From Bacillota bacterium (GTDB lineage: Bacteria > Bacillota > Desulfitobacteriia > Desulfitobacteriales > JAJXUE01), in contig JAJXUE010000001.1 in the NCBI GenBank assembly GCA_021783135.1, positions 41,926-105,925 on the forward strand: 64,000 nucleotides of DNA, given 5' to 3'. A model generated the notes under the pieces. The model made no database searches. It was given only the letters and a program-made list of their open reading frames with translations, and was not told the origin of the DNA. The translations under genes and the position numbers were made by a program. The first letter of the stretch is position 1. Each line of letters begins with the position of its first letter. This document shows positions 1,320-57,451 of the stretch, piece after piece.

Positions 1320-1334
1320 CGACACCGACTATAT

Positions 1335-3969: not shown

Positions 3970-3972
3970 TAT

Positions 3973-4515: not shown

Positions 4516-4574
4516 ATTGCAACCCCATAGCGCTTATTCGTTGTAAGTATACCAAAACTCACCCCATTTGTAAC

Positions 4575-4609
4575 GCAACCAAACAAGACCCGGGATATTT
4601 CCCGGGTCT
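4575..4609 (-). terminator. Rho-independent terminator after the GH18 gene
   Basis: Hairpin AGACCCGGGA / TCCCGGGTCT (4586-4609) followed on the minus strand by TGTTTGGTT. Confidence 0.6.
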
Positions 4610-4619
4610 TAACTTATTA

Positions 4620-5768: not shown

Positions 5769-5841
5769 TAAAAGTCAACTCCTCGGTATTTTATTGCTAA
5801 CCTTATTTTTTACCCAATATGGGCAAGCTTATGTATAGCCG

Positions 5842-6552: not shown

Positions 6553-6613
6553 CCTTTATTCACTCCACATCATCATTTATATAATACAGATATTGAGATG
6601 GAGCCATAGCTAG

Positions 6614-6646
6614 AACAAAAAGAGAGACGCCTATCGGCATCTCTCT
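6614..6646 (-). terminator. Rho-independent terminator after the yabE-like gene
   Basis: Stem AGAGAGACGCC / GGCATCTCTCT (one mismatch) followed on the minus strand by TTTTTG. Confidence 0.65.
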
Positions 6647-6666
6647 ACTATAATTATACTTATTAC

Positions 6667-7851: not shown

Positions 7852-7927
7852 TGAATCCCTCCCGAATATAAATTCTTGGCTTATTTTACCTCATCGTAAA
7901 GCACATGTAAATACTTTATTACATATA

Positions 7928-8782: not shown

Positions 8783-8909
8783 CCCTTGCCCTCCTTTTCT
8801 TGCCAACTTATGCCCTGAATTTACACTTTAGAACACATGCAAAGAAGGTCATGCCAAAGATTGAGTTTAAAATAGACCCTATAATCTAGCCAGTTAAACG
8901 GCGAATTGC

Positions 8910-8947
8910 CGAAAAATAAAAACTGTGGACCCCGACGGATCCACAGT
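8910..8947 (-). terminator. Rho-independent terminator after tatD
   Basis: Stem ACTGTGGA / TCCACAGT (8922-8947) followed on the minus strand by TTTTTATTTTT. Confidence 0.8.
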
Positions 8948-8972
8948 TGCAGCGCTCGCTTTGGGCATGTGT

Positions 8973-9743
8973 TTAATTTAGGGTAATACCGAATAGGCGG
9001 CAGCTGTTTGCAGCCGTAATTGCACCCAATTGGCCAGGATCTATCTTTTTTATTGCAGCAAGTTTTTCCAACACAAGTTGAACATTTGCCGGTTCATTAC
9101 GCCTGCCCCTTAAAGGCTCAGGGGTTAAATACGGCGAATCGGTCTCAATCAACAACCTATCCAAGGGTATCTTAGCAGCCACTTCTTGTAACTTAACCGC
9201 GTTCTTAAAGGTAACTGGACCAGCAAAGGAAATGAATAGACCTAAGTCTAGTACGATTTTAGCGGTCTCCCAACTACCCGAAAAGCAATGCATCACCCCA
9301 CCGTTTTGCGGCGGTTCGTTGCGGATTAAATCAATCACATCTTGATGTGCATCTCTATTGTGCACAATTATGGGCAGCCCCAGGTCATTGGCAATATGCA
9401 GCTGAGCAGCAAACCCATCGCGTTGCGCAGCACGAGGCGACAAGTCACGATAATAATCTAACCCTATCTCCCCAATTGCAACTACCTTTGGTTGCCGGGC
9501 AAGACTAGCCAAAGCTTCCCATTCTTGTTCCGTAACGGCGCTTACATCATGCGGATGAATACCAACAGCTGCATATATCTCGGGATATTTGGCAGCTAAG
9601 GCCAGTGATTTACGGCTAGACGCAAGATCATATCCTACATTAATTACCGCACCGACTCCTCGTGCCCGTAACCGAGCAATAACTTCCTCACGGTCAACAT
9701 CAAAGCGCTGGTCATCGATATGGGCGTGACTTTCAACAATCAT
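8973..9743 (-). CDS. tatD: TatD-family metal-dependent hydrolase (YabD)
   Basis: SHAHID start motif, EIGLDY, HCFSG and ETDSPYL motifs. Overlaps the metG stop by 4 nt. Confidence 0.9.
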   Translation of the reverse strand: MIVESHAHIDDQRFDVDREEVIARLRARGVGAVINVGYDLASSRKSLALAAKYPEIYAAVGIHPHDVSAVTEQEWEALASLARQPKVVAIGEIGLDYYRDLSPRAAQRDGFAAQLHIANDLGLPIIVHNRDAHQDVIDLIRNEPPQNGGVMHCFSGSWETAKIVLDLGLFISFAGPVTFKNAVKLQEVAAKIPLDRLLIETDSPYLTPEPLRGRRNEPANVQLVLEKLAAIKKIDPGQLGAITAANSCRLFGITLN

Positions 9744-11686: not shown

Positions 11687-11705
11687 AAAATCATCCTCCC
11701 AAAAC

Positions 11706-11971
11706 GCAAAAATAAAAACTCCCATCCCGGCAAGGGGCGAGAGTTTCGCGGTACCACCCTATTCACCCGGTATAAACCGAGTCTCAAACGAGCATTAGCT
11801 CTGCCTTGTAACGGAGGACTTCCGGTTGAGTCTACTGACAACATCAATTTCAACCCAACAGCTCTGGGGCCATTTTCTCCCTTGTTCCTATGCGGTCTTC
11901 CACCGTCTACCGCTCGCTAAAATAGGTTGAAAAAGGGGTACTCTCCCCATCATAGCCTCTTGCTTAATGTG
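11706..11971 (-). promoter_or_regulatory. T-box riboswitch leader of metG, probable Met (AUG) specifier
   Basis: The minus strand carries the conserved T-box sequence AGGGTGGTACCGCG (plus-strand cgcggtaccaccct at 11748-11761). A terminator stem plus TTTTTATTTTT follows (11707-11744). Stem I elements are a GGTGGAA distal loop and an AGAGTA GA-motif. AUG (11873-11871) plus a purine sits just 5' of the CCCC helix strand, as expected for a specifier codon. Confidence 0.85.
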
Positions 11972-11977
11972 TATTTG

Positions 11978-12007
11978 AGTATACCCGCTATAAGCCATTC
12001 TTGTCAA
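11978..12007 (-). promoter_or_regulatory. sigma-A type promoter for the metG T-box leader
   Basis: Minus strand TTGACA (12007-12002), 18-nt spacer, TATACT (11983-11978). Confidence 0.55.
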
Positions 12008-12056
12008 GTATAACCAAAATGATTGCTATTTATACAAAAATAGGCAAAAAAATTCG

Positions 12057-12117
12057 TTGACTTATAATGGAATCATTGGTATCATAAGGTTGTAATAAAT
12101 TGTCGAAACTTGTTGAA
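12057..12117 (+). promoter_or_regulatory. abrB promoter with two tandem Spo0A boxes in the leader
   Basis: TTGACT (12057-12062), 17 nt, TATCAT (12080-12085). TGTCGAA (12101-12107) and TGTTGAA (12111-12117) lie one helical turn apart downstream of the -10, resembling the 0A-box arrangement known at B. subtilis abrB. Confidence 0.55.
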
Positions 12118-12131
12118 GGGGGAAATCTAGT

Positions 12132-12380
12132 ATGAAATCTACTGGCATCGTACGTAAAGTTGACGAATTGGGTCGCGTTGTTCTGCCTATCGAGCTGCGC
12201 CGCACCTTGGGAATTGACGAAAAGGATGCACTGGAAATCTATGTAGACCAAGAGAAAATCATCCTCAAGAAATATGAACCTGCTTGTGTCTTCTGTGGTA
12301 ACGCTAGTCAGGTCCAAGTTTTCAAAGGAAAAAATGTGTGCCGTGAATGCGCGCAAGCCATGAGCTCTCAAGCCGTATAA
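12132..12380 (+). CDS. abrB: transition-state regulator AbrB
   Basis: MKSTGIVRKVDELGRVVLPIELRRTLGI is the SpoVT/AbrB swapped-hairpin N-domain. Adjacent to metG as in B. subtilis. Confidence 0.92.
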   Translation: MKSTGIVRKVDELGRVVLPIELRRTLGIDEKDALEIYVDQEKIILKKYEPACVFCGNASQVQVFKGKNVCRECAQAMSSQAV

Positions 12381-12394
12381 TTAGTACATGTCAC

Positions 12395-12426
12395 AACAAC
12401 CGGTTTAACAACCGGTTGTTTTTTTA
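12395..12426. terminator. bidirectional terminator shared by abrB and rsmI
   Basis: 11-bp stem AACAACCGGTT / AACCGGTTGTT with loop TAAC, then TTTTTTT on the plus strand. The last codons and the stop of rsmI lie inside the hairpin. Confidence 0.8.
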
Positions 12427-13250
12427 TCCTTTTCTTTTATAAATGCATTGTAAATTTCTCTTTTAGGCACTTGATACTTTTCTGCCAGCACCTTAAATGC
12501 AGCCTTTTGTTCCAAGCCAGCTTGAAGCAGACCTGTAATTTCCTCACCCCAACTACTGGGGACACTTGGAACCTCGGTCACAGGCGCAGATAAAAAGACT
12601 ACTAATTCTCCACGAGCCGGAACTTCAGCTAAACGCTGCAACACTGCGGAAACCCTTCCCCGGATTATTTCTTGGTGCAGCTTGGTTAGTTCCCGCGCAA
12701 TTACGAGTTCAATATCCCCGCGCGTGGCCAAAACGTCTTGTAAAAACTTTTGCAACCGGTGAGGTGCTTCATAAAATATTTGAGTTGCCACGACATCTTT
12801 AAGTTTGTTCAAGGCATCTTTTCTGGCCTTTTCTGAAGTTGGCATAAAACCGGCAAAGTAAAATGGCGTGCACGGTAAGCCTGAAAGCACCAACCCACTA
12901 GTAAAAGCACTGGGCCCAGGTATCACGTCAACCTCAATTCCCGCAAGGATAGCCTCACGCACTAGAACTTCGCCCGGATCTGAAATGCCCGGCATACCTG
13001 CGTCCGACACCAATGCCACATCATTATCGGCTTTTAAATATGCAATTAATTCCGCAGCTTTACTTTTTTCGTTATGTTGATGATAGCTGGTCAGAGGGGT
13101 TTTGATGGCAAAGTGATTTAATAATTTATGAGTGTGGCGCGTATCCTCTGCGGCGATTAAATTGACATTTTTCAGCGTCTCTAACGCTCGGAGCGTGATA
13201 TCTTGCAAATTACCAATCGGTGTTGCACACAAATAAAGTTTTCCTGCCAA
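12405..13250 (-). CDS. rsmI: 16S rRNA (cytidine1402-2'-O)-methyltransferase RsmI (YabC)
   Basis: GKLYLCATPIGNLQDITLRALETL...AAEDTRHT matches the tetrapyrrole-methylase-fold RsmI N-terminus. Confidence 0.9.
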   Translation of the reverse strand: MAGKLYLCATPIGNLQDITLRALETLKNVNLIAAEDTRHTHKLLNHFAIKTPLTSYHQHNEKSKAAELIAYLKADNDVALVSDAGMPGISDPGEVLVREAILAGIEVDVIPGPSAFTSGLVLSGLPCTPFYFAGFMPTSEKARKDALNKLKDVVATQIFYEAPHRLQKFLQDVLATRGDIELVIARELTKLHQEIIRGRVSAVLQRLAEVPARGELVVFLSAPVTEVPSVPSSWGEEITGLLQAGLEQKAAFKVLAEKYQVPKREIYNAFIKEKDKKTTGC

Positions 13251-13252
13251 GT

Positions 13253-13981
13253 TTAGCTCATCCCACTTTCTAAACCCTGCCCGGCAAAATATACATTGTT
13301 CATTTCTCGTGTATAATCTCCATTGGCTTCATAAACAATCAAAGGAGGTTCGACAACACCATCAACATTTCGTCCATACTGACATTCCAACAAAAAAGTA
13401 CTCGCCTTATGTTGCACGTCATGGTGCACAAAGCGTATCCTTACCGCACCCAAGCTATTATCATCGATACACTTGAGTACCTCTTTTAAACCGGACGCAC
13501 GATAAATCAAGGCCAACCTCCCTTTCTCCCGCAGTAATTGCGCGGCGGATTTAACCACGTCCGCAATTGTGAGCCCGGTCTGACTTCTAGCCGTTGCTCG
13601 AGCCTTGTGTGGCGCAACTGTTCCACCCCGGACTGAAAAAAAGGGGGGGTTGACAGTGATAAGATCAAAAATGTGCGGTTCGATACCATTGGTACAAATA
13701 TCACTTGTAATGATATCTATTTGTTCACCAAGATTATTTAAAATAACATTTCGTCTTGCTAAATTGCTAAGCTCAGGTTGAATTTCAATACCCGTAATTT
13801 TTATTTCCTTAGCCCGACTAGTTAACAATAAAGGTACGATTCCTGAACCGCAACAAAAGTCGCAAATGCGCATGCCTTTCTTAAGCATAGGAAAATTGGC
13901 CAGAAGTACTCCCTCCAGGCCAAACTTTGGCAACTCGTCACTTTGAATAATGCGCAATCTATTGCGAAAAAGATCATCCAT
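13253..13981 (-). CDS. SAM-dependent methyltransferase, YabB / tRNA (adenine37-N6) TrmN6-like
   Basis: Track ORF trimmed to ATG 13981 (RBS GAGAGG), which avoids overlap with yabA. DFCCGSGIV SAM motif and VNPPFF N6-adenine MTase motif. Confidence 0.8.
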   Translation of the reverse strand: MDDLFRNRLRIIQSDELPKFGLEGVLLANFPMLKKGMRICDFCCGSGIVPLLLTSRAKEIKITGIEIQPELSNLARRNVILNNLGEQIDIITSDICTNGIEPHIFDLITVNPPFFSVRGGTVAPHKARATARSQTGLTIADVVKSAAQLLREKGRLALIYRASGLKEVLKCIDDNSLGAVRIRFVHHDVQHKASTFLLECQYGRNVDGVVEPPLIVYEANGDYTREMNNVYFAGQGLESGMS

Positions 13982-18662: not shown

Positions 18663-18666
18663 ACTT

Positions 18667-18697
18667 AAGGGGGGAAGTGCTTAGCACTTCCCCCCTT
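18667..18697. terminator. perfect 14-bp GC-rich hairpin between convergent genes (putative bidirectional terminator)
   Basis: AAGGGGGGAAGTGC tta GCACTTCCCCCCTT. There is no long U tract on either side. Confidence 0.55.
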
Positions 18698-18704
18698 AGG
18701 TACC

Positions 18705-40147: not shown

Positions 40148-40309
40148 TTGGAATATTCCTCCTCAGAAAAAGTCTAAAGAAAACTAAAATGAATGAAATT
40201 TGACCGAATTTGACGTATATAGTAGGAGATAAAGAAAAAAGTGTAAATTCGCAAGTACACTTTACAAACAAATGATAAATATAAAAAATAACTTATAATA
40301 AATAACAAA

Positions 40310-40470
40310 TTATACACAGTGTTATCCACAAACTGTGGATAACATATACTAAGACTAAAGTATAAAAAAGCCCAAAAACGCTGGGTTTTTAGGGCATCGG
40401 CAATGTTATGATAACAGGATTTTAGAAAGTTATCAACAGGTTTTTCCGAGCATAAATGACTTTATCAACA
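40310..40470. promoter_or_regulatory. oriC part I: DnaA-box cluster upstream of dnaA
   Basis: TTATACACA 40310-40318; perfect TTATCCACA 40322-40330; perfect inverted TGTGGATAA 40334-40342; TTATCAACA 40430-40438 and 40462-40470. AT-rich context between the divergent dnaA and rpmH genes. Confidence 0.85.
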
Positions 40471-40540
40471 TTTTGTAAACAGGTTAATCCCAAAAATAAT
40501 TCAGATTAATAGACAACTTAATTTATATTTCTAAACGTCC

Positions 40541-40570
40541 TTGACATCGAAAAAGCAAATAAGTTATAAT
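40541..40570 (+). promoter_or_regulatory. sigma-A promoter of the rpmH-rnpA operon
   Basis: TTGACA (40541-40546), 18 nt, TATAAT (40565-40570). Confidence 0.6.
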
Positions 40571-40631
40571 TTCAAGTGATTCTGTGTATGAGCGTTGAAA
40601 TTTACCCACTCACATAAAGGGGGTGTAAAAT

Positions 40632-40766
40632 ATGAAAAGAACATATCAGCCTAAAAATAGAAAACATAAAAGGGTTCATGGTTTTTTGAGTCGGATGAGT
40701 TCTCCTACCGGACGCAATGTTATTAAGCGTAGACGGTTAAAAGGTAGAAAAAAACTTTCAGCGTAA
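40632..40766 (+). CDS. rpmH: 50S ribosomal protein L34
   Basis: Below the ORF-track size cutoff. ATG 40632 translates to [44 protein letters not shown] (44 aa). RBS AAAGGGGGTG upstream. Confidence 0.95.
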
Positions 40767-40895
40767 GGGCCGCATTAAGTGGCCTTTATCTTTCTGTTGG
40801 CAGTACACATCTAAAATTATTTTGAATAATTTTTTGTAAATTATAGTAGATTAGTTAGTAATAAATTCTCAGCTTTACTGATTTTAGGTGTGTTT

Positions 40896-46820: not shown

Positions 46821-46856
46821 CATTGGATTTCGATCAGGGTCTTTTCAATTTGGTTT

Positions 46857-46893
46857 AAAACTCCCACTTTAATAAGTGGGAGTTTTAATTTTG
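46857..46893 (+). terminator. Rho-independent terminator after rsmG (hairpin copy 1)
   Basis: 13-bp stem AAAACTCCCACTT / AAGTGGGAGTTTT with loop taat, then AATTTTG. Confidence 0.8.
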
Positions 46894-47101: not shown

Positions 47102-47863
47102 GTGTCATTAGTTGTAGCAATTGCTAACCAAAAAGGTGGGGTAGCGAAAACCACTACTGCTGTAAACTTGGGAGCGTGCTTGGCGGAGTTGGGTAAAAAG
47201 GTACTGATAGTTGACAGTGACCCGCAAGGCAATGCCAGCAGTGGTCTCGGTACGGACCGGGAAAACCTCGGGCTGTGTCTCTATAGTGTCATTATTGATA
47301 ATGAACCCATTGAAGAAATCATTATCACCACTGGTACAGAGGGTCTTTTTCTTGCTCCTGCATCGATTCAGTTAGCAGGGGCCGAAATTGAGCTTGTTTC
47401 GGCAATAGCACGCGAGCACAAATTACGCAAAGCAATTGAGAGTATTCGCAATGATTATGACTACATAATTATTGATTGCCCTCCTTCGTTAGGGCTCTTG
47501 ACGGTCAATGCTTTGACTGCAGCTGATCGTGTGCTTGTGCCAATTCAATGTGAGTACTATGCACTTGAAGGCTTATCGCTTTTGATGAACACTATCGCAT
47601 TAGTCCAAAAGCATTTAAATCGCGAACTTGATGTTCTTGGCGTTCTGTTAACTATGTTTGACGCGAGGACTAATTTAGCTATTCAGGTTGTAGACGAAGT
47701 TAAGGCTTACTATCCAGGCAAAGTATTTAGATGTATTGTGCCGCGCAATGTTCGCCTCAGCGAAGCGCCGAGCCATGGACTGCCGATTATTTCCTATGAT
47801 CCAAAATCTAAGGGTGCTGAAGTCTATCGGGAACTGGCAAAGGAGGTAATTGAACTTGAGTAA
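47102..47863 (+). CDS. soj: chromosome partitioning ATPase ParA/Soj
   Basis: ANQKGGVAKTTT deviant Walker A, IIDCPPSLG Walker B region; 253 aa. Confidence 0.95.
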   Translation: MSLVVAIANQKGGVAKTTTAVNLGACLAELGKKVLIVDSDPQGNASSGLGTDRENLGLCLYSVIIDNEPIEEIIITTGTEGLFLAPASIQLAGAEIELVSAIAREHKLRKAIESIRNDYDYIIIDCPPSLGLLTVNALTAADRVLVPIQCEYYALEGLSLLMNTIALVQKHLNRELDVLGVLLTMFDARTNLAIQVVDEVKAYYPGKVFRCIVPRNVRLSEAPSHGLPIISYDPKSKGAEVYRELAKEVIELE

Positions 47864-48734
47864 GAAAGGTCTAGGCAAAGGACTACAAGCTTTGCTTCCC
47901 AGTGCCGATGCTAAGGATGAGATTATCAATGAAATTGCATTGGATCAGATTGTTACTAACCCGAACCAGCCAAGGAAGAATTTTGACCTTGTTAAATTAG
48001 AGGAGCTTGCAGAATCTATTAAATTGCATGGAGTTGTTCAACCTATCATTGTTAGAGCCCGCTCGCGCCATAAGTATGAAGTTGTTGCCGGTGAAAGACG
48101 ATTTAGGGCTTGTTTGCTAGCGGGTTTGTCAACCATTCCGGTTGTTATTAAGGATTATTCCGATGCTCAAGTTGCCGAGATTGCTTTAATTGAGAATATT
48201 CAACGCCAAGATCTAGATCCTATTGAAGAGGCTGCAGCATATAGAACGTTAATTGATGAATTTAAGTTTACGCAGGAAACCTTGGCGAAGCAACTTGGCA
48301 AGAGTAGACCTTTTATAGCTAATTCACTGCGGCTTCTTAGTTTACCGTCACAGGTGCAGCGTTATTTGACCGAAGGCAGCCTTACGGTAGGACATGCTAA
48401 GGTTATTTTGGCTTTAAACGAACCTTCTTTAATCATGTTAGTTGCACAAAAGGTTGCTCGTTCTGGCTTATCTGTCAGGGAGACGGAAACGCTTGTCAAG
48501 GGGATTTTAGACAAAACCGATCATCCCGACTTATCGACAGCTGACCTTACTCCTGAGAAGGAAAAGTCTACGGTCGACCCCATTGTTGGGCAAATTGAGG
48601 ATAGGCTGAGAAGCTTACTGCGCACGCAAGTAAAAATTAAGACAAACGGAGACCGTGGCCGGATTGTCATTGATTATTATGGCCAAGAAGAATTAAGTCA
48701 AATTGTTGAGGTTCTTTTGGGAGAACTTTCTTAG
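47850..48734 (+). CDS. spo0J: chromosome partitioning protein ParB/Spo0J
   Basis: GLGKGLQAL start region, NPNQPRK, GERRFRA arginine patch (CTPase), HTH region. The start is TTG 47850 or 47856. Confidence 0.95.
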   Translation: MNLSKKGLGKGLQALLPSADAKDEIINEIALDQIVTNPNQPRKNFDLVKLEELAESIKLHGVVQPIIVRARSRHKYEVVAGERRFRACLLAGLSTIPVVIKDYSDAQVAEIALIENIQRQDLDPIEEAAAYRTLIDEFKFTQETLAKQLGKSRPFIANSLRLLSLPSQVQRYLTEGSLTVGHAKVILALNEPSLIMLVAQKVARSGLSVRETETLVKGILDKTDHPDLSTADLTPEKEKSTVDPIVGQIEDRLRSLLRTQVKIKTNGDRGRIVIDYYGQEELSQIVEVLLGELS

Positions 48735-48820
48735 CGGGTTACGCTTGGCCTTGGAAAGTGGTCCACAGATACGTGGAATCATGGGGAATGTTGTGTTCTA
48801 TTTTTTTCATCCTATTTTGT

Positions 48821-48846
48821 GACTCCCACTTTTATTAGTGGGAGTC
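48821..48846 (+). terminator. hairpin after parB (copy 2 of the rsmG terminator stem); weak U tract
   Basis: GACTCCCACT tttatt AGTGGGAGTC. Its 24-nt core is 22/24 identical to the core at 46859-46882. Confidence 0.5.
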
Positions 48847-49094
48847 CAACTTTGTGGCCAACATGATCGTCATCGCTGTCCTGACAGAAGGCCAGATTAG
48901 TCAGCCTCACGGAACAGCAGCCTGAAATTCGTATCAGTTATGAAGCCAAGTTACGAGCCGAATTGTGATACCATACCTACTGGCGTTAGAGGGCGTCAGT
49001 GAGACTATTACTTTTGTTATTTTTTTAGAAAGACGAGTCCTTTATGATTCGTGGTGACGCGTTTAGTAGGTACAGGTGGCTAGTACTGGATTTA

Positions 49095-49110
49095 TGTTCT
49101 ACGTGGAACA
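49095..49110. other. near-consensus parS site
   Basis: TGTTCTACGTGGAACA differs at one position from the perfect palindrome TGTTCCACGTGGAACA. It lies 360 bp downstream of parB. Confidence 0.6.
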
Positions 49111-49306
49111 TTCTGTACTTTTCCTACGGCTGTGAACGTTCAGATCACGCGCCCGGATAGTTGCGACAATTTTCGTGTTTGGCTCAGAACGGCTAATGGG
49201 CGTAGCAAAAGACAATACTAGCTTTAAGTCTGGCAACAAATTGATAATTATAATTTATACTTTAACTTTCCCTAAAGTGTGCAAGGTGCTTTCGACTGAG
49301 TGGATA

Positions 49307-49356
49307 GTCTCCCTTCCATTAAATGTTCCATATGGAACATTTAATGGAAGGGAGAC
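49307..49356. repeat. 50-bp perfect palindrome (25+25, no spacer) with a parS-like core
   Basis: GTCTCCCTTCCATTAAATGTTCCAT|ATGGAACATTTAATGGAAGGGAGAC. I checked every base of the left arm against the reverse complement of the right arm. The core is TGTTCCATATGGAACA (49324-49339). Confidence 0.9.
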
Positions 49357-49393
49357 TTAGTAAGGGGTAAGGCAAAAAACAAAGGGGAATGGC

Positions 49394-50542
49394 ATGATAT
49401 ATTTGGACAATGCTGCAACAACGTGGCCCAAACCCAAAGAGGTTAAAGAAGCAATGTGCTTGGCAATGGATGACTATGCCTTTAACCCAGGGCGAGGAAG
49501 GTACCGCGGAGCGTTAAGCACCTCGGGGAAAGTGCAACATACGAGAGATCTGCTAGCCCAATTATTCGGAATCGCGGACTCGCACAGAATAGTCTTTACA
49601 GTAAATGCCACAATGGCAATAAATATGGCCTTGCAAGGGATGCTCAACCCGGGTGACCATGTTATAACAACTTCAATTGAACATAACGCTGTATGGCGTC
49701 CGCTTAAGTATTTACAACGTCGCGGGGTAGAACTTACTGTAATCAACTGTGAATTGGACGGTACAATAGATGCTGAACAAATTCGCCTCGCGCTACGAAC
49801 TAATACAAAGTTAATAGTTTCAACCCATGCATCCAATGTTTTAGGTACTATTGAGCCAATTGCAGCGATAGGAAAGATAGCAAGAGAACACAATGTAGCA
49901 TATTTGGTCGACGCAGCCCAGACTGCAGGTGTAATTCCGATCAACGTAGAGGAGATGTGCATAGACCTGTTAGCCTTTCCCGGACATAAAGGATTGCTGG
50001 GGCCACAGGGCACAGGAGGACTATATGTTGGACCAAGAGTAAATCCGCAGCCGTTGCTACAAGGTGGAACCGGCAACAATTCGGAACAAGACTATCAACC
50101 CGAAGCATTCCCGGAAAAACTGGAAAGCGGCACGTTAAACACTGTTGGTATAGTGGGTTTAGGAGCAGGAATAGAACACTTACTAGCCACTGGAATAGAT
50201 AACATATATACGTACGAACTAAACTTGTGTAAATTATTGGTCAAAGGATTGCGCCAAATAGAAAATGTCCAAATTTACGGTGTGGACGATTGGCAAGCAA
50301 GAGTGCCCCTGGTTTCATTAAACCTTGGTAAGCACAATTCGAATGAAGTTGGCTATATTTTAGACCGAATTTATCAAATCTGGGTAAGAACTGGTTTGCA
50401 TTGCGCACCCCAAGCCCATAGAACAATGCATACACTTGAACAAGGTTGTATCAGAGTTAGCCCATCGAACTTTACCACTCAAAGTGAGATTGAAAGCTTT
50501 GTCCAGGCTATAGAAGAAATTAACGAGGAGTTACGAGGGTAG
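49394..50542 (+). CDS. class V aminotransferase, cysteine desulfurase family (NifS/CsdA-like)
   Basis: MIYLDNAATTWPKP start, STHASNVLGT, and FPGHKGLLGPQGTGGLY (PLP lysine in HK). RBS AAAGGGGAA. Confidence 0.85.
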   Translation: MIYLDNAATTWPKPKEVKEAMCLAMDDYAFNPGRGRYRGALSTSGKVQHTRDLLAQLFGIADSHRIVFTVNATMAINMALQGMLNPGDHVITTSIEHNAVWRPLKYLQRRGVELTVINCELDGTIDAEQIRLALRTNTKLIVSTHASNVLGTIEPIAAIGKIAREHNVAYLVDAAQTAGVIPINVEEMCIDLLAFPGHKGLLGPQGTGGLYVGPRVNPQPLLQGGTGNNSEQDYQPEAFPEKLESGTLNTVGIVGLGAGIEHLLATGIDNIYTYELNLCKLLVKGLRQIENVQIYGVDDWQARVPLVSLNLGKHNSNEVGYILDRIYQIWVRTGLHCAPQAHRTMHTLEQGCIRVSPSNFTTQSEIESFVQAIEEINEELRG

Positions 50543-50551
50543 GGTGATGGT

Positions 50552-51250
50552 TTGATTGGAGTAACAGTAAATACTTTGGCAATAATTGTAGGAACAATTA
50601 TCGGTCTGCTGTTTCGTCGGGGGATATCGGAGAAGGTAAAAGTCACAGTTATACAAGGCATAGGATTAGCGGTACTTTTAATTGGGGCAAAAATGGCGAC
50701 CGGATCGGCAAACTCTTTGGTTTTAATCTTAAGTTTGGTTGCAGGTGGACTGATTGGGGAGATTGTGGACATTGAGAAGCGGTTAATCAACTTTGGAACT
50801 GCACTTGAGACAAAGCTGCAGCGAAACGGTAAGCAAGGAGACTTCACGAATGCATTTGTAACCACGAGTTTAATCTACTGCGTAGGCGCGATGGCCATTA
50901 TGGGGGCGCTGCAAAGTGGGCTACAAGGAAACAATCAAATTTTATTTGCGAAGTCGATGCTTGATGGAATATCAGCGATTGTATTTGCTTCATCCATGGG
51001 AATTGGCGTTGCCGCTTCAGCTATACCGGTATTTGTATACGAAGGAATTTTGGCGGTTTCAGCGACTTACTTACAGGGAATTCTGTCCCAATCTGTTATA
51101 GCGGAAATGAGTGCAACAGGTGGGTTGCTTATTGTTGGAATAGCGTTAAGTGTTTTGCAGATTAAGCAAATTAAAGTTGGCAATTTGCTGCCATCAATTC
51201 TTTGTGCGGTGGGTTTTACGATTCTATTTCAGCACTTTGGGATATACTAA
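50552..51250 (+). CDS. DUF554 family membrane protein (YdfK/YqgA-like)
   Basis: MIGVTVNTLAIIVGTIIGLLFRRG start and a polytopic glycine-rich profile typical of DUF554. Family name from memory. Confidence 0.65.
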   Translation: MIGVTVNTLAIIVGTIIGLLFRRGISEKVKVTVIQGIGLAVLLIGAKMATGSANSLVLILSLVAGGLIGEIVDIEKRLINFGTALETKLQRNGKQGDFTNAFVTTSLIYCVGAMAIMGALQSGLQGNNQILFAKSMLDGISAIVFASSMGIGVAASAIPVFVYEGILAVSATYLQGILSQSVIAEMSATGGLLIVGIALSVLQIKQIKVGNLLPSILCAVGFTILFQHFGIY

Positions 51251-51363
51251 CCTGCTAACTTCGCAATGCAGTGCTCCAATAGTAGTCCAAATCTTTTTGT
51301 TAGGATAGGAAAATTTATAAGCTGTAGTATAATTAAACGTAAGCTATAAGTGGGGGTGCCATA

Positions 51364-51867
51364 ATGTTAAATACTTTGACCATATGGTTAGCCGCTAATG
51401 TTGTATCATTAACAGCAGCATTAGTTTGCGCGGTGATTATTTTATTAGGTCTAATCATTAGTTTGTTCGTTCAGCTAAATAGGCTAACGCAAAAGCATAA
51501 ATCCCTAATGTCAGGGATGGAAGGCAAAGATCTCGAGGAAATGCTGTCTATGTATTTAAATAAGGCAATTAACGCAGAACAAAAAGTGGCGCAATTAAAT
51601 TCAGTGTGTGAAATGCTTGAGGAATATACGCGTAAGTCACTGCAAAAAGTTGGATTGGTACGCTTCAATGCATTTGAGGATATGGGCGGTGATATGAGCT
51701 TTGCCGCAGCATTACTTGACCAGCAAGGCGATGGTTTGGTAATAAGCTCAATCAATAGCCGGGAAGAGTCGCGCGTGTATGCTAAGCCAATAACACAAAG
51801 GACATCAACTTACAATTTGTCGAGGGAGGAAAAAGAAGCACTTAGCTTGACAAATAAAAGTAAATAA
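51364..51867 (+). CDS. DUF4446 family protein
   Basis: An N-terminal TM helix, a coiled segment, then VGLVRFNAFEDMGGDMSFAAALLD...SREESRVYAKPI, characteristic of DUF4446, which is often found near parB in Firmicutes. Confidence 0.7.
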   Translation: MLNTLTIWLAANVVSLTAALVCAVIILLGLIISLFVQLNRLTQKHKSLMSGMEGKDLEEMLSMYLNKAINAEQKVAQLNSVCEMLEEYTRKSLQKVGLVRFNAFEDMGGDMSFAAALLDQQGDGLVISSINSREESRVYAKPITQRTSTYNLSREEKEALSLTNKSK

Positions 51868-51886
51868 ATGGAAAATTAAAATTAAT

Positions 51887-51938
51887 ACAACCTAAAAGAT
51901 CAGCTCCGCTACTTAGAGGGGCTGATCTTTTAGGTTGT
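51887..51938. terminator. bidirectional terminator between the DUF4446 gene and yyaC
   Basis: 18-bp perfect stem ACAACCTAAAAGATCAGC / GCTGATCTTTTAGGTTGT with a 16-nt loop. The yyaC stop lies in the right arm. Confidence 0.8.
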
Positions 51939-52535
51939 AGTGTAGATTTTTTCGACTTTATTGGAATTAAGATATGCAAGACTAATAATCTCGGCAATGC
52001 ATTCTGCCATTTTCATTACAACACTAAGGCGAGTGTTCTGCAAGACTAAATACTCCATAAAGCCACCGACATTGACAATGCCGGTTAAATACGCTTCCCC
52101 GACAGCAGGCAAGCTTTTGTGAACGCCTGCGCCGGGCTTCAATGCCCCTTTGGCTAGGTTGATGCAACCAACGCTATCTAAATGTCCTAAGCAAGCATCT
52201 ACGGCAATTATAAAAGCATTCGGGTTAGCTTTATTTACTTGGGTTAACGTAAGTTGCAAATTTGTCGCATGTACAGGGTGATCTAAGGTGCCATATACCT
52301 TTATTGTATTGTCGGTTAGACGAACAAGCTGGGAACCCGCCAATGGGCCTAAGCAATCACCAGTGGATCGATCTGTGCCTATGCACACTACTACAGGCTC
52401 TCGATCCGAACCAGCTTTTTGAATATAAGATGCAAGTAGATCCGTAATATGCTTAATACCGTTCACATCATTAAGATGAGCCTTGTGGCTGAGCTCTCCT
52501 TTTTTCCCCGTGCCATTGAGGTAAGGAATTAACAT
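51930..52535 (-). CDS. yyaC: sporulation protein YyaC (GPR-like putative protease)
   Basis: VVCIGTDRSTGDCLGPLAG motif; about 200 aa. Conserved position after spo0J. Confidence 0.8.
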   Translation of the reverse strand: MLIPYLNGTGKKGELSHKAHLNDVNGIKHITDLLASYIQKAGSDREPVVVCIGTDRSTGDCLGPLAGSQLVRLTDNTIKVYGTLDHPVHATNLQLTLTQVNKANPNAFIIAVDACLGHLDSVGCINLAKGALKPGAGVHKSLPAVGEAYLTGIVNVGGFMEYLVLQNTRLSVVMKMAECIAEIISLAYLNSNKVEKIYTTT

Positions 52536-52659
52536 AATTGCCCTCCTAGAATCGTCTAGTTCAATATACCCAAAAATGAAAATTTTATGCGTGAGCTAGG
52601 AAAGCTGTTCAGTTAGACTTTGCTGAAGCATAAAAGTTATAGACAAGGAGGGGTAATTA

Positions 52660-53691
52660 GTGAGAAGTTCTACTTTAAAGGTCGCGGCGACGTATATCGG
52701 AGCAGTTATGGGAGCTGGCTTTGCATCCGGTCAAGAAATTTTTCAATTCTTTATTGTGTACCAAAATAAGGGCTTGTGGGGCACTGCCCTTGCGGGAATT
52801 CTGTTTGCCATGTTCGGAGTGATGGTTTTGAAGGTTATCCGAGCGCATGGGATTCAGTCATATCAAGAACTATTTATCCTTCTCCTTGGCCGTAGGCTAG
52901 GAAAAATATGCGAGGCTTTTGTTACGCTGTTCCTCTTTGCGGGCCTGATCGTGATGCTAGCGGGAAGCGGCGCCGTATTTAGTGAGTATTTTAATCTGGG
53001 CGCAACCTATGGAATACTACTCACCGCAAGCGCGGTGTTATTAGCTTTAGCTAGCAAAGGAGAAGGCGTAATTTGGATAAACTCTATTCTAATTCCTCTA
53101 AAATTAGTGATATGTATAATGGTGTGTTTCGCAGCTTTGCGGGTAGTACCAGAGCTTAATGGAGATATAATTCCGGTAATCCATCGGCCCTGGTATGTCT
53201 CGGCTCTTCTTTACGTGTCATTTAATATGACCTTCGCCATAGTTGTATTGGCCTCGCTCGGTAAAGAAATAAAGGGCAATATACTCGGCGGCCTACTTGG
53301 TGGTTTGGGTCTGGGATTTTTTGCTTTAACCATAGGCTCGGCTCTCCTTCACTTTTATCCAGGCATAGGTAAATATCAAGTGCCAATGGTTACCATATCT
53401 TTCCAAATAGGTACCCAGATGGGCGTGTTTTATTTGCTGCTGTTATGGTTTGCGATGATAACGGCTGCTGTTGGTAATGCGTTTAGCTTGGTTAAGCGAA
53501 TTACGCCAATATTCCGTCTGGATTATTGGTTACTATGCCTAATTACGGTTGGGCTGGCAGTTCCTATGGCGCATTTTAAATTCTCAACTTTGGTAGGAAT
53601 TGTTTACCCAGTTTTCGGCTATATAGGACTACTAGTATTAGGTCCAATCATTTACCTTGCTTTAGGAGGGAAGGAAGGTAAGTCTAGGTAA
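52660..53691 (+). CDS. YkvI/YyaD-family membrane protein
   Basis: YIGAVMGAGFASGQEIFQFF motif, about 10 TM segments. Divergent from yyaC as yyaD is in B. subtilis. Confidence 0.75.
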   Translation: MRSSTLKVAATYIGAVMGAGFASGQEIFQFFIVYQNKGLWGTALAGILFAMFGVMVLKVIRAHGIQSYQELFILLLGRRLGKICEAFVTLFLFAGLIVMLAGSGAVFSEYFNLGATYGILLTASAVLLALASKGEGVIWINSILIPLKLVICIMVCFAALRVVPELNGDIIPVIHRPWYVSALLYVSFNMTFAIVVLASLGKEIKGNILGGLLGGLGLGFFALTIGSALLHFYPGIGKYQVPMVTISFQIGTQMGVFYLLLLWFAMITAAVGNAFSLVKRITPIFRLDYWLLCLITVGLAVPMAHFKFSTLVGIVYPVFGYIGLLVLGPIIYLALGGKEGKSR

Positions 53692-53791
53692 AATGATAAG
53701 TATATTCCTTCCGTGCTTGACATAACAAGAATCTTCTGGTAAACAGTTATATGTATACCTGGTTGTCGATACTAGTTGGAGGTAAAAATTA

Positions 53792-54133
53792 ATGCATGAA
53801 ATGTCTCTGATGGCAGGAGTTTTTGATGCGGTTAATGCCGCATTACTTGACTATCAGGTTACAAAAGTGACCAAGGTTAAACTTCAAGTGGGTAAATTCA
53901 CCAATGCTGAACCCGCTTCGCTTGAGTTTGCGTTTCAAGCATTTGCCCAAGGTACATTTGTGGAAGGGGCTGAGTTGGAAATAGAGGAAGTACCGGTAGT
54001 TGCAAAATGTAACTGCTGTGGTAATGAATTTAACGCTAACCAACTGGTCTTTTTTTGCCCCAAATGTGAGAATTACGACATCGAGATTATAAGCGGACGG
54101 GAGCTAATCCTGGAGAGCTTGGAGGTTGAATAA
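53792..54133 (+). CDS. hypA: hydrogenase nickel incorporation protein HypA
   Basis: MHEMSL N-terminal nickel-binding motif and a CxxC...CxxC zinc site (CNCCGN, CPKCEN); 113 aa. Confidence 0.9.
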   Translation: MHEMSLMAGVFDAVNAALLDYQVTKVTKVKLQVGKFTNAEPASLEFAFQAFAQGTFVEGAELEIEEVPVVAKCNCCGNEFNANQLVFFCPKCENYDIEIISGRELILESLEVE

Positions 54134-54792
54134 TGGCAGAAAAGCAACATGTTAAAGTCATGTCTAATCTTAGAGCTGCGAATGAGGCTCAAGCGGAAGT
54201 TAATAGTATAACGCTACATAAGCATAATGTTTTTTCGTTTAATTTGATGGGTTCACCCGGGGCTGGGAAGACAACCCTGCTGGAGAAAACCATAAATATG
54301 GTCAAAAATAATGCGAAAATGGCCGTAATTGAAGGTGACATATATACCAGCAAAGATGCCGACAGGATAGCACAGCATGGCGTACCAGTTGTTCAAATTA
54401 ATACCGGTGGTGGTTGCCATTTAGATGCAGTAATGGTCGGGAAAGTTTTACCACAATTTGACCTGGCGACATTAAATATTTTGGTAATAGAGAATGTGGG
54501 TAATTTGGTGTGCCCGGCTGACTTTAATTTAGGTGAGGATTGCAAAGTCACGGTACTTAGTATTACTGAAGGTGATGATAAGCCCGCAAAGTATCCGCTT
54601 ATCTTCCGTAATTCTCAGGCTGTAGTTATAAATAAAATTGACTTGGCAGATTATACAGATGTAAACATTGACAATATGAAGCGTGATATTTTGTCGATCA
54701 ACCCCGAGATTAAAATATTTGAAGTTTCGTGCCGCACTAATCAGGGATTGGAGCAATGGTGTAACTGGTTGTTAGATAACCTCAGAAAATAG
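54133..54792 (+). CDS. hypB: hydrogenase nickel incorporation GTPase HypB
   Basis: GSPGAGKTTLLE P-loop, ENVGNLVCPA and INKIDL G-motifs. The start overlaps the hypA stop (TAATG). Confidence 0.9.
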   Translation: MAEKQHVKVMSNLRAANEAQAEVNSITLHKHNVFSFNLMGSPGAGKTTLLEKTINMVKNNAKMAVIEGDIYTSKDADRIAQHGVPVVQINTGGGCHLDAVMVGKVLPQFDLATLNILVIENVGNLVCPADFNLGEDCKVTVLSITEGDDKPAKYPLIFRNSQAVVINKIDLADYTDVNIDNMKRDILSINPEIKIFEVSCRTNQGLEQWCNWLLDNLRK

Positions 54793-55269
54793 GTGAACGC
54801 TGTGTCCGATCTATATGAGAAGGCTTTAGACTGCATGGCGAGAGGCTGCTGGAATGAAGCGGGAGATTTTTTAAAGCAGGAATTAGATCTAAACCCGGAT
54901 TGCTTAAAAACTAAAAATAAACTGGGCGTAGTTTTGGTAAATCTAGGTGACACTGACGGCGCGGGTAAGCTTTTTCGCGAAGTCTTGGACAACGACTCCT
55001 TGTTTGCACCGGCTTATAACAATTTAGGCAATTTGGCAAGAGAAGAGGGACGAATTGGGGAAGCCATTCGTTTCTATCACAAGTCAATTGCCTGTGACCC
55101 GAAATACAGCACTCCGCATAATAACCTGGCTGTTGTTTATAAAGAACAGGGCCATTACGATTTGTTTGTTAAAGAGATGCGCACTGCCCGCCGCTTGGTA
55201 GGACAAGGCAAAGGCAGGAGTGTCTTTGGCAGGATTTTTTGGTTTATTGGCGGAGGACCGCTCGAATAA
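54793..55269 (+). CDS. tetratricopeptide (TPR) repeat protein
   Basis: Repeated A-x3-Y/F-x2-A-L-x2-P pattern (PAYNNLGNLAREEGRIGEAIRFYHKSIACDP, HNNLAVVYKEQG). GTG 54793 abuts the hypB stop. Confidence 0.7.
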   Translation: MNAVSDLYEKALDCMARGCWNEAGDFLKQELDLNPDCLKTKNKLGVVLVNLGDTDGAGKLFREVLDNDSLFAPAYNNLGNLAREEGRIGEAIRFYHKSIACDPKYSTPHNNLAVVYKEQGHYDLFVKEMRTARRLVGQGKGRSVFGRIFWFIGGGPLE

Positions 55270-55323
55270 GATTAAGGATCCGATCTTTCGCTCCGTTAGC
55301 TAAACTGTGACGGTGTAGATTGT

Positions 55324-55356
55324 CAAGTTGCCGCAAATGCTGCAACTTGTTTCATT
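55324..55356 (+). terminator. hairpin between the hyp-TPR operon and selB (weak terminator or attenuator)
   Basis: CAAGTTGC cgcaaatgct GCAACTTG followed by TTTCATT. Confidence 0.4.
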
Positions 55357-55365
55357 ACAGGGGGC

Positions 55366-57273
55366 TTGAATGTGAGTTATTATATTATCGGTACGGCGGG
55401 CCACGTTGATCATGGTAAGACCGAATTAATTCGAGCCTTAACAGGAGAGTCTACGGATAGATTAAAAGAGGAACAGGCAAGAGGCATTTCGATTGAACTA
55501 GGGTTTGCGTCACTTATGTTACCTAACGGTTCTTTAGCCGGGATAGTTGATGTACCCGGGCATGAAAGATTTGTTCGCCAGATGCTCGCCGGAATTGGTG
55601 GCATAGATCTAGTGCTGTTGGTAATTGCGGCGGATGAAGGTGTTATGCCTCAAACTAAAGAGCATTTGGAAATAATAGATCTACTACAGGTTCGTAAGGG
55701 AATAATAGTTTTAAACAAAACTGACTTGGTTGACGCCGATTGGCTTGAACTGGTTATGTTAGAGGTTAAAGAGTCGTTGTCCGGAACAGTGCTGCAGGAT
55801 GCGCCAATTGTTGCAGTTTCAGCCTTAAAAGGAGTCGGAATACATAATTTAGTGACTGCAATTGAGCAGGAATTGGACGGTTTACCGCCACGTGAATACT
55901 ACGGTCCGTGTCGAATACCCATCGACCGCACTTTTAGCATTTCTGGGTTCGGCACAATTGTAACCGGGACGATGTACCAAGGTAGCGTGCAGGTTGGGGA
56001 CAATGTTGTTATCGAACCGGGTCATCAAGAGTCACGTGTTCGTTCCTTACAAGTACACGGGGAGAAAGTAGAAAAAGCTTATGCCGGCCAACGGGTGGCC
56101 GTTAACCTACCTAATTTAGAAGTAAATACAGTTATACGAGGTTCGACATTGTTAACCCCAGGCTTCTTGACACCAGTTCAAACCCTTGATGTTTCACTTA
56201 AGTATTTGGCAAGCGCCGCTAAACCATTGGCACATCGTCAAAGGGTAAGAGTCCATATTGGTACACAAGAAACAATGGGGAGAGTGCATTTACTAGATCG
56301 GGAAGAGGCGGAGCCTGGCCAAATGCTTTATGCACAAATTCTTATGGAAGAACTTGTTATAGCGGATCGTGGTGACCGGTTTGTCATTAGGCAGTATTCA
56401 CCTGCACGTACCATTGGGGGCGGAACTGTAATTGACGGAGGCAAGCGAAAATACAAAAGGCATGCGAGCCAAGTTTTGGAAATGCTTGCGATTAAAGCAA
56501 AAGGGTCACCCCGGGATATATTAGATGCATTTTTGCAAAATGTAGATATTCCCTTATCGACCAATGAGTTGCTAAAGAGTGTAGGTTTGAGTTCGGACGA
56601 GCTTGAGGCAGCACTTAAAGACTTAACTGGCAGCCTAGACGTGGTCCAAGTTGAACAGCAAAATTATTGGTTTAAAAAGTTAAGTTCGGAAAGCTGGACG
56701 GCTCGAATTGAAACATTTTTGCAAGACTATCACCGTAAATACTATCTTAGACCGGGAGTTCCCAAGGAAGAGTTGAAGTCACGCTTTTTCCTTAAGTGGA
56801 ACAACAAATTATTTACAGCCTTTCTCGAGTATATGGAAAGCATAGGTAGGGTTGTTAATAAGGGCAGTTTCGTTGCTGCGCCGGATTTTGTTGCCGGCCC
56901 TAAAGGTGATTTGGCAACTGTCGTGCCATTGATCTTACAGGAGTACCGCGTGGCTGAATTATCTCCACCGGAGTGGACAAGAGTTATGAACAGCTATAAT
57001 ATTGATGGACCGGTCGGCATTGAATTGTTGCAATTTTTTCTGCGCGAGGCACAACTTACCAAGGTTTCTGAGATTTTATATTTTTCATCGGATGCTTTAC
57101 GTTCTGCCATGGAACAACTTCAGCACTTACTCAGTGAGAAAAGTGAATTTACAGCGATGGATGCGAAAGAAAAACTAGGCATTAGTCGTAAATACCTGAT
57201 CCCAATACTGGAATATATGGATAGCCAGAAGATAACTAGGAGGATTGGCGATAAAAGAACCAGATTTAAATAA
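55366..57273 (+). CDS. selB: selenocysteine-specific translation elongation factor SelB
   Basis: IIGTAGHVDHGKT G1 motif, DVPGHERF G3 motif, NKTDL G4 motif. A long C-terminal winged-helix extension ends in SRKYLIPILEYMD. tRNA-Sec lies immediately downstream. Confidence 0.92.
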   Translation: MNVSYYIIGTAGHVDHGKTELIRALTGESTDRLKEEQARGISIELGFASLMLPNGSLAGIVDVPGHERFVRQMLAGIGGIDLVLLVIAADEGVMPQTKEHLEIIDLLQVRKGIIVLNKTDLVDADWLELVMLEVKESLSGTVLQDAPIVAVSALKGVGIHNLVTAIEQELDGLPPREYYGPCRIPIDRTFSISGFGTIVTGTMYQGSVQVGDNVVIEPGHQESRVRSLQVHGEKVEKAYAGQRVAVNLPNLEVNTVIRGSTLLTPGFLTPVQTLDVSLKYLASAAKPLAHRQRVRVHIGTQETMGRVHLLDREEAEPGQMLYAQILMEELVIADRGDRFVIRQYSPARTIGGGTVIDGGKRKYKRHASQVLEMLAIKAKGSPRDILDAFLQNVDIPLSTNELLKSVGLSSDELEAALKDLTGSLDVVQVEQQNYWFKKLSSESWTARIETFLQDYHRKYYLRPGVPKEELKSRFFLKWNNKLFTAFLEYMESIGRVVNKGSFVAAPDFVAGPKGDLATVVPLILQEYRVAELSPPEWTRVMNSYNIDGPVGIELLQFFLREAQLTKVSEILYFSSDALRSAMEQLQHLLSEKSEFTAMDAKEKLGISRKYLIPILEYMDSQKITRRIGDKRTRFK

Positions 57274-57290
57274 TTGCTTAATTGGACCAT

Positions 57291-57319
57291 TTGATAAGCA
57301 TTAGATCACATGCTATAAT
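57291..57319 (+). promoter_or_regulatory. sigma-A promoter for selC
   Basis: TTGATA (57291-57296), 17 nt, TATAAT (57314-57319), about 35 nt upstream of tRNA-Sec. Confidence 0.55.
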
Positions 57320-57353
57320 TAAAAAGCTATGAGTTAAGATGCTAGCTTAAAAC

Positions 57354-57451
57354 GGGGATGAATCTGGCCTGGTGGCCGGCCTGGACTTCAAATCCACGTG
57401 TTGGGCAGTGATCCTGTCCAAGGTGGGTTCGATTCCCACACTTCCCCGCCA
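57354..57451 (+). tRNA. selC: tRNA-Sec (anticodon TCA)
   Basis: 98 nt. 6-bp D stem with a 4-nt loop (CTGGCC tggt GGCCGG), anticodon loop CTTCAAA, long variable arm (TTGGGCAG...CTGTCCAA), T arm GTGGG TTCGATT CCCAC, encoded CCA. The acceptor stem has a U-U mismatch in my fold. Confidence 0.85.

Follow-up and report, generated by a model that had tools for sequence, protein, structure and literature searches.

Introduction

Chromosomal parS sites (consensus tGTTNCACGTGAAACa, here TGTTCCACGTGGAACA) are the closest described counterparts of the element reported here, a perfect spacerless palindrome of 52 bp with 26-nt arms at positions 49306..49357 of a 64,000-nucleotide stretch of DNA from a Bacillota bacterium (contig JAJXUE010000001.1 of assembly GCA_021783135.1, positions 41,926 to 105,925). 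This whole stretch is called the window below; intergenic features are given without a strand, and the loci compared with the window are referred to by L-numbers. The palindrome is one of two parS-type sites in a conserved cluster between parB and a cysteine desulfurase gene, about 9 kb from oriC. That it is, as a whole, a functional parS variant with young, probably neutral long arms is judged probable, though well short of certain.

The element shares with chromosomal parS the correct spacing of its inverted half-sites, 14 of the 16 positions of the consensus, and an origin-proximal location beside parAB. A canonical ParB is encoded with it, and the relatives fill the same cluster with canonical sites. 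Unlike the usual parS, the window site, a predicted ParB target, is centred on TA and is set in 18 further nt of perfect symmetry per arm. Its half-site GTTCCAT is an in vivo ParB target in Pseudomonas aeruginosa, in which chromatin immunoprecipitation sequencing (ChIP-seq) of ParB gave the half-site motif GtTcCAc with C-to-T permitted at position 7; GTTCCAT is one of six variants enriched at least 4-fold at the ParB peak summits (PMC5961200). The degenerate and half parS sites of P. aeruginosa (parS5-10; GTTCCAC-type heptamers) are also comparable, the window site being likewise a natural site with two substitutions for which recognition at lower affinity would be expected. In contrast to them, it carries the same tolerated substitution in both half-sites, with the symmetry kept, and lies in the primary origin-proximal cluster, whereas the P. 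aeruginosa sites are scattered round the genome.

The Noc-binding site (NBS, TATTTCCCGGGAAATA) is another 16-bp inverted repeat read by a ParB-family protein. The window core, however, differs from it at 8/16 positions, and the bases specific for parS, G at position 2 and A at position 7, are present in it. There is no noc and no second ParB-family gene in the window, whose ParB has R and G rather than Q and R at the specificity positions; identity with the NBS was rejected on these grounds.

Products of template switching at quasipalindromes (QP), as described by the Ripley model and by the Escherichia coli thyA and lacZ QP reporters, resemble the long arms in two respects: a short inverted repeat is now longer and perfect, and one arm has the appearance of having been copied, in reverse complement, from the native flank of its partner. 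The known events correct few bases, whereas at least 12 nt per arm would have to have been copied in the window.

Sequence and symmetry of the palindrome

By direct reading, the arms 49306-49331 and 49332-49357 are 100% complementary with a spacer of 0 nt. The preliminary description of the window, made from the letters alone, had given a perfect palindrome of 50 bp at 49307-49356; the sequence is as it stated, but the symmetry runs one base further on each side. Its distance to the start codon, 36-37 nt to the ATG at 49394, agrees with that description. The 25-nt arm had 0 matches in 100 dinucleotide-preserving shuffles, and within the 64-kb window the arm is confined to its own locus even when up to 3 mismatches are allowed. 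No other perfect spacerless palindrome of at least 16 bp was found in the window. The region folds as single-stranded DNA at -26.4 kcal/mol (z = -11.0) and as RNA in context at -61.9 kcal/mol (z = -6.4). Among about 180 parS-type sites examined, the palindrome of 52 bp is the longest.

The palindrome is real, to judge from its identical sequence in five independent assemblies (three metagenome-assembled genomes (MAGs) at NCBI and two records at ENA), each with unique collinear flanks on both sides. That it might be a hairpin chimera made by an assembler, a point already raised in the preliminary description, can hardly be believed. Chimeric reads can yield palindromes, and a sixth contig (Logan, k-mer-based) starts 4 nt left of the palindrome centre; de Bruijn assemblers, however, break in this way at true palindromes, which accounts for the contig end. 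The five agreeing assemblies are labelled as different projects and record types, and artefactual palindromes usually lie at contig ends.

The central 16 nt, TGTTCCATATGGAACA (49324..49339), consist of two inverted GTTCCAT half-sites with TA in place of CG at the centre. As had been recognized before, they differ from TGTTCCACGTGGAACA at the two innermost positions alone, so that both mismatches to the consensus fall in the central CpG. The core is a parS with both cytosines of this CpG turned to thymine. Restriction avoidance as the cause of the change was ruled out by the counts of CACGTG (9, with 8.4 expected), ACGT (125, with 122.8 expected) and CATATG (15, with 14.5 expected) in the window. 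The core is embedded in an inner segment of 28 bp, ATTAAATGTTCCATATGGAACATTTAAT (49318..49345), in which A/T-rich symmetric flanks surround the parS; the same layout is seen in sites of relatives.

A second, near-canonical parS, TGTTCTACGTGGAACA (1 mismatch), absent from the preliminary description, is located at 49095..49110, 213 bp upstream of the core. This variant is also found in a relative, at L010:3724, and in several blocks of genomes from GTDB. Beyond these two sites, no further parS-type site within 2 mismatches was found in the 64 kb.

Location near the replication origin

The window is a replication-origin region. The gap between dnaA and rnpA (40148..40889) is the probable oriC, and the GC skew flips its sign there, at about 40 kb. 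The palindrome follows parB at a distance of 571 bp and is about 9 kb away from oriC. The genes recF, dnaN and dnaA are on the minus strand; the order on the plus strand is rnpA, yidC, jag, mnmE, mnmG, rsmG, parA, parB, a gap of 659 bp, the desulfurase gene, DUF554, DUF4446 and yyaC.

The parB (spo0J) gene (47850..48734, + strand; Pfam ParB_N, HTH_ParB, ParB_C) encodes a protein with the ordinary GKSR...VGHAK recognition residues of the canonical parS type. The protein aligns to the ParB structures of Bacillus subtilis, Caulobacter and Thermus, with GKSR and GHA conserved. The residues specific for parS are the equivalents of R173 and G/S201 (Jalal et al. 2020, PMC7383237), and the window ParB has R and G at these positions, which separate ParB from Noc. 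A second ParB or Noc gene was not found in the 64-kb window. Based on these sequences, the core is probably a natural parS variant that an ordinary ParB would recognize with lower affinity.

Conserved parS cluster in related species

The nearest relatives outside the species have 55-62% identity in the desulfurase protein, and the protein search found no relative between 62% and 100% identity. A metagenome scan for closer relatives gave only ones of 44-51% identity, with parB nearby in 2/80 loci and one parS-like match. The gene order is the same in all relatives whose contigs reach the upstream genes (L007, L010, L011 and L094). The contigs of L092 and L295 begin within the gap or close above it, reaching about 640 bp (L092) and 176 bp (L295) upstream of the desulfurase gene; both show the downstream genes only.

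The gap between parB and the desulfurase gene, or its readable part, contains 2-4 parS sites in 5/5 related species (L007, L010, L011, L092, L094). Most of the sites in the relatives' gap are exact TGTTCCACGTGGAACA, and at least one exact consensus site is kept in the relatives. Since this gap carries parS sites in the relatives, the palindrome core belongs to a conserved parS cluster. A/T-rich symmetric inner flanks like those of the window site are found in L011:1566-1593 (TTAAAATGTTCCACGTGGAACATTTTAA, a 28-bp perfect palindrome), in L295:128-158 (ATTATAATGTTCTACATGGAACATTATAAT) and in L007:3669-3690 (a 22-bp palindrome), and L295 has two further parS sites within its 176 bp. The comparison suggests that the inner ~28 bp of the palindrome represent the ordinary state in this group.

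Intergenic alignment with the relatives revealed nothing beyond the parS cores and one common 11-mer, GCAACAAATTG, present at 49233-49243 in the window and at L092:519-529 in the closest relative, 138 vs 132 nt downstream of a parS. The 11-mer may have been conserved as a promoter, or as another regulatory element, of the desulfurase gene. There is no parS between GCAACAAATTG and the ATG in L092.

No counterpart of the outer 12 nt of each arm was found in any relative compared. Because these 12 nt are unrelated in sequence between relatives, a protein that reads the outer arms is unlikely. The same observation bears on another suggestion of the preliminary description, an operator for the downstream genes: a dedicated dimeric regulator reading the extra 17-18 nt per arm, or ParB itself as a repressor, would control the desulfurase-DUF554 genes from the palindrome. 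The palindrome is indeed near the start codon, ParB at parS is reported to affect the expression of adjacent genes in some bacteria, and a parS-like site of L295, flanked by TATAAT hexamers, lies 25 nt upstream of the ATG. A sequence-reading regulator, however, should conserve the outer arms, which are wholly different between relatives; there is no adjacent regulator gene, and the nearest parS is located about 130-220 bp upstream of the ATG in L007, L011 and L094 and about 240 bp upstream in L092. An operator is accordingly considered highly improbable.

TA-centred sites in other lineages

A scan for the exact 16-mer TGTTCCATATGGAACA in 8-kb blocks, with one genome per GTDB species, returned at least 120 blocks. 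Among the matches listed, 21/120 blocks hold further parS-type sites besides TGTTCCATATGGAACA; 11 of these 21 contain exact CG-centred parS, where 0.003 would be expected by chance, and ParA and/or ParB are encoded in at least seven blocks. Centres one step away, TG and CA, are frequent in these parS clusters.

Three TA sites adjoin parB in a Gemmataceae MAG of the Planctomycetota (L208, 6267-6492), and two are found just upstream of parA in a Tissierellia MAG of the Bacillota (L169, 3947-4035). A Clostridia MAG of the Bacillota has a cluster linked to parAB with the centres TG, TA, TA, CA and CA (L205, 6487-7485), and the cluster in an Akkermansia (L104, 805-2674) is entirely non-CG, with the centres CA, CA, TA and TA; parAB were not found in the 8-kb block of the latter by tblastn. 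All sites found in the parAB-linked blocks of L208, L169 and L205 have non-CG centres. The ParB proteins of L169 and L208 retain arginine and glycine/serine at the positions for parS specificity. These sequences show the CG-to-TA centre to be a parS variant that recurs in nature. The CpG in the middle of parS is naturally replaceable by TG, CA or TA, which is a cheap, testable statement on the tolerance of ParB at the dyad. The literature yielded nothing relevant on the exact sequence variants or on parS in combination with cruciforms.

These results also bear on the first option of the preliminary description, a specialized binding site for ParB or a ParB/Noc-like protein with altered central-base specificity. 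The binding site as such stands: the core is derived from parS and ParB is its likeliest partner, in view of the conserved parS cluster beside parAB, the recurrence of the TA core in the clusters of other phyla and the published ChIP-seq of GTTCCAT. The altered specificity finds no support, as the residues of the window ParB are ordinary, the window has no second ParB or Noc, and the lineages with TA-centred sites only also have proteins of the canonical type.

The locus of Schnuerera sp. xch1 (L174:4701-7400) contains noc (with the Q/R specificity residues), parA and parB. In the gap between noc and parA, a TA-centred site is set in a perfect palindrome of 34 bp and a CG-centred parS in one of 32 bp, each with a layout of A-tract and T-tract. 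A scan of viral contigs gave 78 matches to the 16-mer with an arm-length distribution near chance. The exceptions are L089 and the phage-like L046 (IMGVR_UViG_3300028026_000019), which has its own repeated site family: 10 copies of the 20-bp site GGTGTTCCAYRTGGAACACC in 13.9 kb (sites 801-13658) with TA, TG or CA at the centre. The L046 sites resemble an array of parS-like sites from a phage or plasmid, read by a protein that would accept any YR dinucleotide at the centre.

Outer arms of the palindrome

The left outer arm, AGTCTCCCTTCC (49306..49317), is pyrimidine-rich and species-specific; from its composition and the absence of a counterpart in relatives it is a candidate copied segment. 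The right outer arm, GGAAGGGAGACT (49346..49357), is purine-rich, continuous in composition with the downstream leader, and the candidate template. The purine fraction is 0.29 in the left 17-nt outer arm (49306-49322) vs 0.46 in the flank to its left; it is 0.71 in the right 17-nt outer arm (49341-49357) and 0.81 in the next 36 nt to the ATG. The composition hints weakly at the left arm as the copy, because it is pyrimidine-rich, unlike its own flank, while the right arm matches its leader. It is well established that imperfect inverted repeats can be made more perfect by template switching, in which a nascent strand folds back and copies itself (PMC7202029). Such switching during replication is the most likely, though unproven, origin of the outer arms.

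The preliminary description had argued that long perfect palindromes are cut by SbcCD and selected against, so that retention implies function. This argument was not upheld. All copies of the palindrome come from one near-clonal population (0-3 single-nucleotide polymorphisms in 4.6 kb, none in the gap) and thus attest no retention over time. Conservation in relatives, which the same description had put forward as a check, is lacking for the long arms: the closest relatives, at 55-62% protein identity, do not have them. Further, in the prokaryotic loci compared, about 7% (4/58) of ordinary perfect palindromes of at least 16 bp extend by at least 5 more nt per arm, and perfect palindromes of great length are no rarity in prokaryotic DNA. 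The palindromes of an E. coli SbcCD study are far longer than 52 bp, a 460-bp perfect palindrome being named there (PMC4245961).

Permutation of the flanks showed that sites extended by at least 5 nt per arm are more numerous than in the permuted sequences, with 13 for TA cores, where the permutations averaged 0.84, and 4 for CG cores, where they averaged 0.31. As a control in the same loci, long extensions were counted in 4/58 generic non-parS palindromes, 13/122 TA cores and 4/34 CG cores. Extended palindromy as a parS-specific trait was ruled out by this control, as generic palindromes of at least 16 bp extend just as often. Long extension is a general property of genomic palindromes and not a centromere feature. 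Among other parS sites in long palindromes, those of Schnuerera span 32-34 bp, that of an Akkermansia MAG 34 bp and that of Pyramidobacter 42 bp.

Perfect palindromes of 42 bp (L107:1966-2007, a gammaproteobacterial MAG) and 40 bp (L141:2444-2483, an Oscillospiraceae MAG) occur within about 1 kb of parS-type sites. The two are unrelated in sequence, and the one in L107 has the parS-like centre CCACGTGG.

Proposed function and origin

The likely first step is that ParB dimers would recognize the two inverted GTTCCAT half-sites via their helix-turn-helix, with an affinity at the TA centre that is probably below that at a CG-centred site. ParB would then load as CTP (cytidine triphosphate)-dependent clamps that slide onto the flanking DNA, and the palindrome and the 49095 site would jointly contribute to the partition complex near the origin. 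ParB may well not read the outermost 12 nt of either arm. In a recent event, a nascent strand may have folded back during replication at a pre-existing parS palindrome of about 28 bp and copied its own flank, by which the purine-rich leader of the downstream gene would have become the mirror-image left arm. The extreme length would be a young, probably neutral by-product, and an RNA hairpin or a cruciform a side effect. Under this explanation, the eye-catching 52-bp palindrome would be a chromosomal centromere site and not an operator, a mobile element or an artefact. In the long arms, nature may provide a case in which template switching has enlarged a palindrome at an inverted repeat bound by protein. 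Both parS-type sites near oriC (tens of kb) are imperfect and offer a natural case for how much degeneracy ParB loading tolerates.

Several points weigh against this explanation. Peaks of P. aeruginosa ParB with more than 3-fold enrichment consist to 94% of GTTCCAC and to 5% of GTTTCAC, GTTCCAT being weaker (PMC5961200); by analogy with this weaker occupancy, the window site could be a poor or dead ParB loader. Neither of the two parS-type sites in the 64-kb window is a perfect consensus. To judge from the placement of GCAACAAATTG, the exactly corresponding position in L092 is without a site, which makes a strict orthology of the palindrome site uncertain. The template-switch origin draws on composition and analogy; the nearest relative is 62% identical in the flanking protein, and no ancestral or intermediate allele was found. 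Finally, the three centre-mutated sites of the clade are also its three longest symmetries, with 26 nt in the window, 19 nt in L094 and about 15 nt in L295 (the last with a second, internal mismatch besides the mutated centre). Their centres are TA, TG and CA, respectively, and all four changes are C-to-T at CpG. A purely neutral account does not predict long symmetry together with mutated centres. Deamination in an extruded loop could underlie the C-to-T pattern, or the pattern could be coincidental.

The occupancy data also speak for the site as a decayed relic, to which ParB no longer binds usefully after the change from CG to TA; loading would take place only at 49095 or elsewhere in the genome, and the palindrome would be DNA without a function whose youth and perfection are incidental. 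The parS sites of a cluster are redundant, one high-affinity site being enough in P. aeruginosa (PMC5961200), and the relatives retain at least one exact consensus site. Non-CG-only clusters, however, adjoin parAB in other lineages with a ParB of the canonical type, which is hard to explain if such sites are dead. Over the 40 kb left of oriC and the 24 kb right of it there are only two parS-type sites, neither perfect. A complete, correctly spaced pair of inverted half-sites should also be a better target for a dimer than the single half-sites that ChIP-seq scored. The decay of the site is considered possible but unlikely.

The clade pattern could alternatively mean that the long arms are selected, with extrusion of a hairpin or cruciform at parS altering the loading of ParB or SMC or the behaviour of the replication fork, and with the TA centre favouring extrusion. 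The longest arms are found at the three centre-mutated sites and are unrelated to each other, which resembles symmetry conserved without sequence; C-to-T changes at CpG are what deamination in a single-stranded loop would be expected to produce. Such a structure-dependent centromere is given very little weight. CG-centred parS outside the clade are also found in perfect palindromes of 32-34 bp (L095, L211, L174), the generic non-parS palindromes share the tail of long arms (4/58 vs 13/122 for TA and 4/34 for CG), and the three clade sites, at different distances from the gene, may not be orthologous. Mutated centres do not go with long arms as a general rule: the association holds in the clade and fails outside it, where CG-centred sites with arms of 16-17 nt occur in the same three loci.

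Taken more broadly, the notion that the long arms matter is distinctly improbable. It would comprise either an extruding parS that gates ParB/SMC loading, or a process in which ParB bound at parS stalls forks and thereby promotes template switching; palindromes at centromere sites would grow in this way, and deamination in the extruded loop would afterwards remove the central CpG. The only hint of this is the clade pattern, with the longest symmetry at mutated centres and unrelated arms.

Possible role at the RNA level

The preliminary description had also considered transcription of the palindrome. In the leader of the desulfurase gene it would form a hairpin of 24-26 bp that could serve as an RNase III site, a stabilizer or a roadblock for desulfurase-DUF554. 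Because the 36 nt to the ATG leave no room for a promoter plus leader, any promoter must be upstream of the palindrome or overlap it. The predicted hairpin would be very stable, with a 24-bp duplex long enough for RNase III, and, by reading, the pyrimidine-rich left arm is anti-Shine-Dalgarno-like and the right arm Shine-Dalgarno-like. A role as an RNA element is nevertheless improbable. A search of the + strand from parB to the desulfurase gene revealed no sigma-70-like promoter, the relatives do not have a long hairpin at the equivalent position of the leader, and the core is already accounted for by parS. The Rfam search of the gap gave nothing at the gathering threshold, which rules out a known Rfam RNA family; the permissive matches were only plant microRNA precursors, at 19-25 bits vs cut-offs of 144-200.

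A stable intergenic hairpin is shared with intrinsic terminators and with REP (repetitive extragenic palindromic)-like repeats. The stem in the window is far longer than that of a typical terminator, and the sequence after the hairpin, TAGTAAGGGG, has no T-tract. Since this T-run is missing and no terminator-like site was found in 48500-49600 on either strand, an intrinsic terminator was ruled out. Unlike REP-like repeats, the palindrome is single-copy within 64 kb.

Other features of the window

The parA (soj) gene (47102..47863, + strand; Pfam AAA_31, CbiA, ParA) precedes parB. The gene downstream of the palindrome (49394..50542, + strand) encodes a protein of the class-V aminotransferase fold, cysteine desulfurase family (TIGR01977), and is followed in the same orientation by a gene for a DUF554 membrane protein (50552..51250, + strand; domain match). 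A 61-aa open reading frame (ORF) that spans the palindrome (49175-49360) has no Pfam match, and a 91-aa ORF upstream of the desulfurase gene of L010 has no counterpart in the window.

The region 49394-57451 contains the TIGR01977 cysteine desulfurase and DUF554 genes, then hypA, hypB, a gene for a TPR protein, selB and tRNA-Sec. This desulfurase is similar to the selenocysteine lyase SclA, though its score does not reach the SclA cut-off. A role of these genes in the handling of selenium or sulfur is plausible.

The hairpins after parB (48819-48846) and after rsmG (46855-46888) are built on one ACTCCCAC/GTGGGAGT stem and may represent a shared terminator motif. The convergent DUF4446 and yyaC genes are separated by a second long inverted repeat (51886-51939), whose 26-nt arms are 92% complementary and enclose a spacer of 2 nt; it probably terminates transcription in both directions. 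Another of this kind is found at 18663-18701, with arms of 19 nt and a spacer of 1 nt. Positions 3062-3252 of L005, an ENA contig of the same strain, were compared with the window from 51868 onward. The two are identical up to the stop codon of DUF4446 and then continue with unrelated sequence, the point of divergence falling just before the inverted repeat 51886-51939; this divergence is either a structural variant or a chimeric join.

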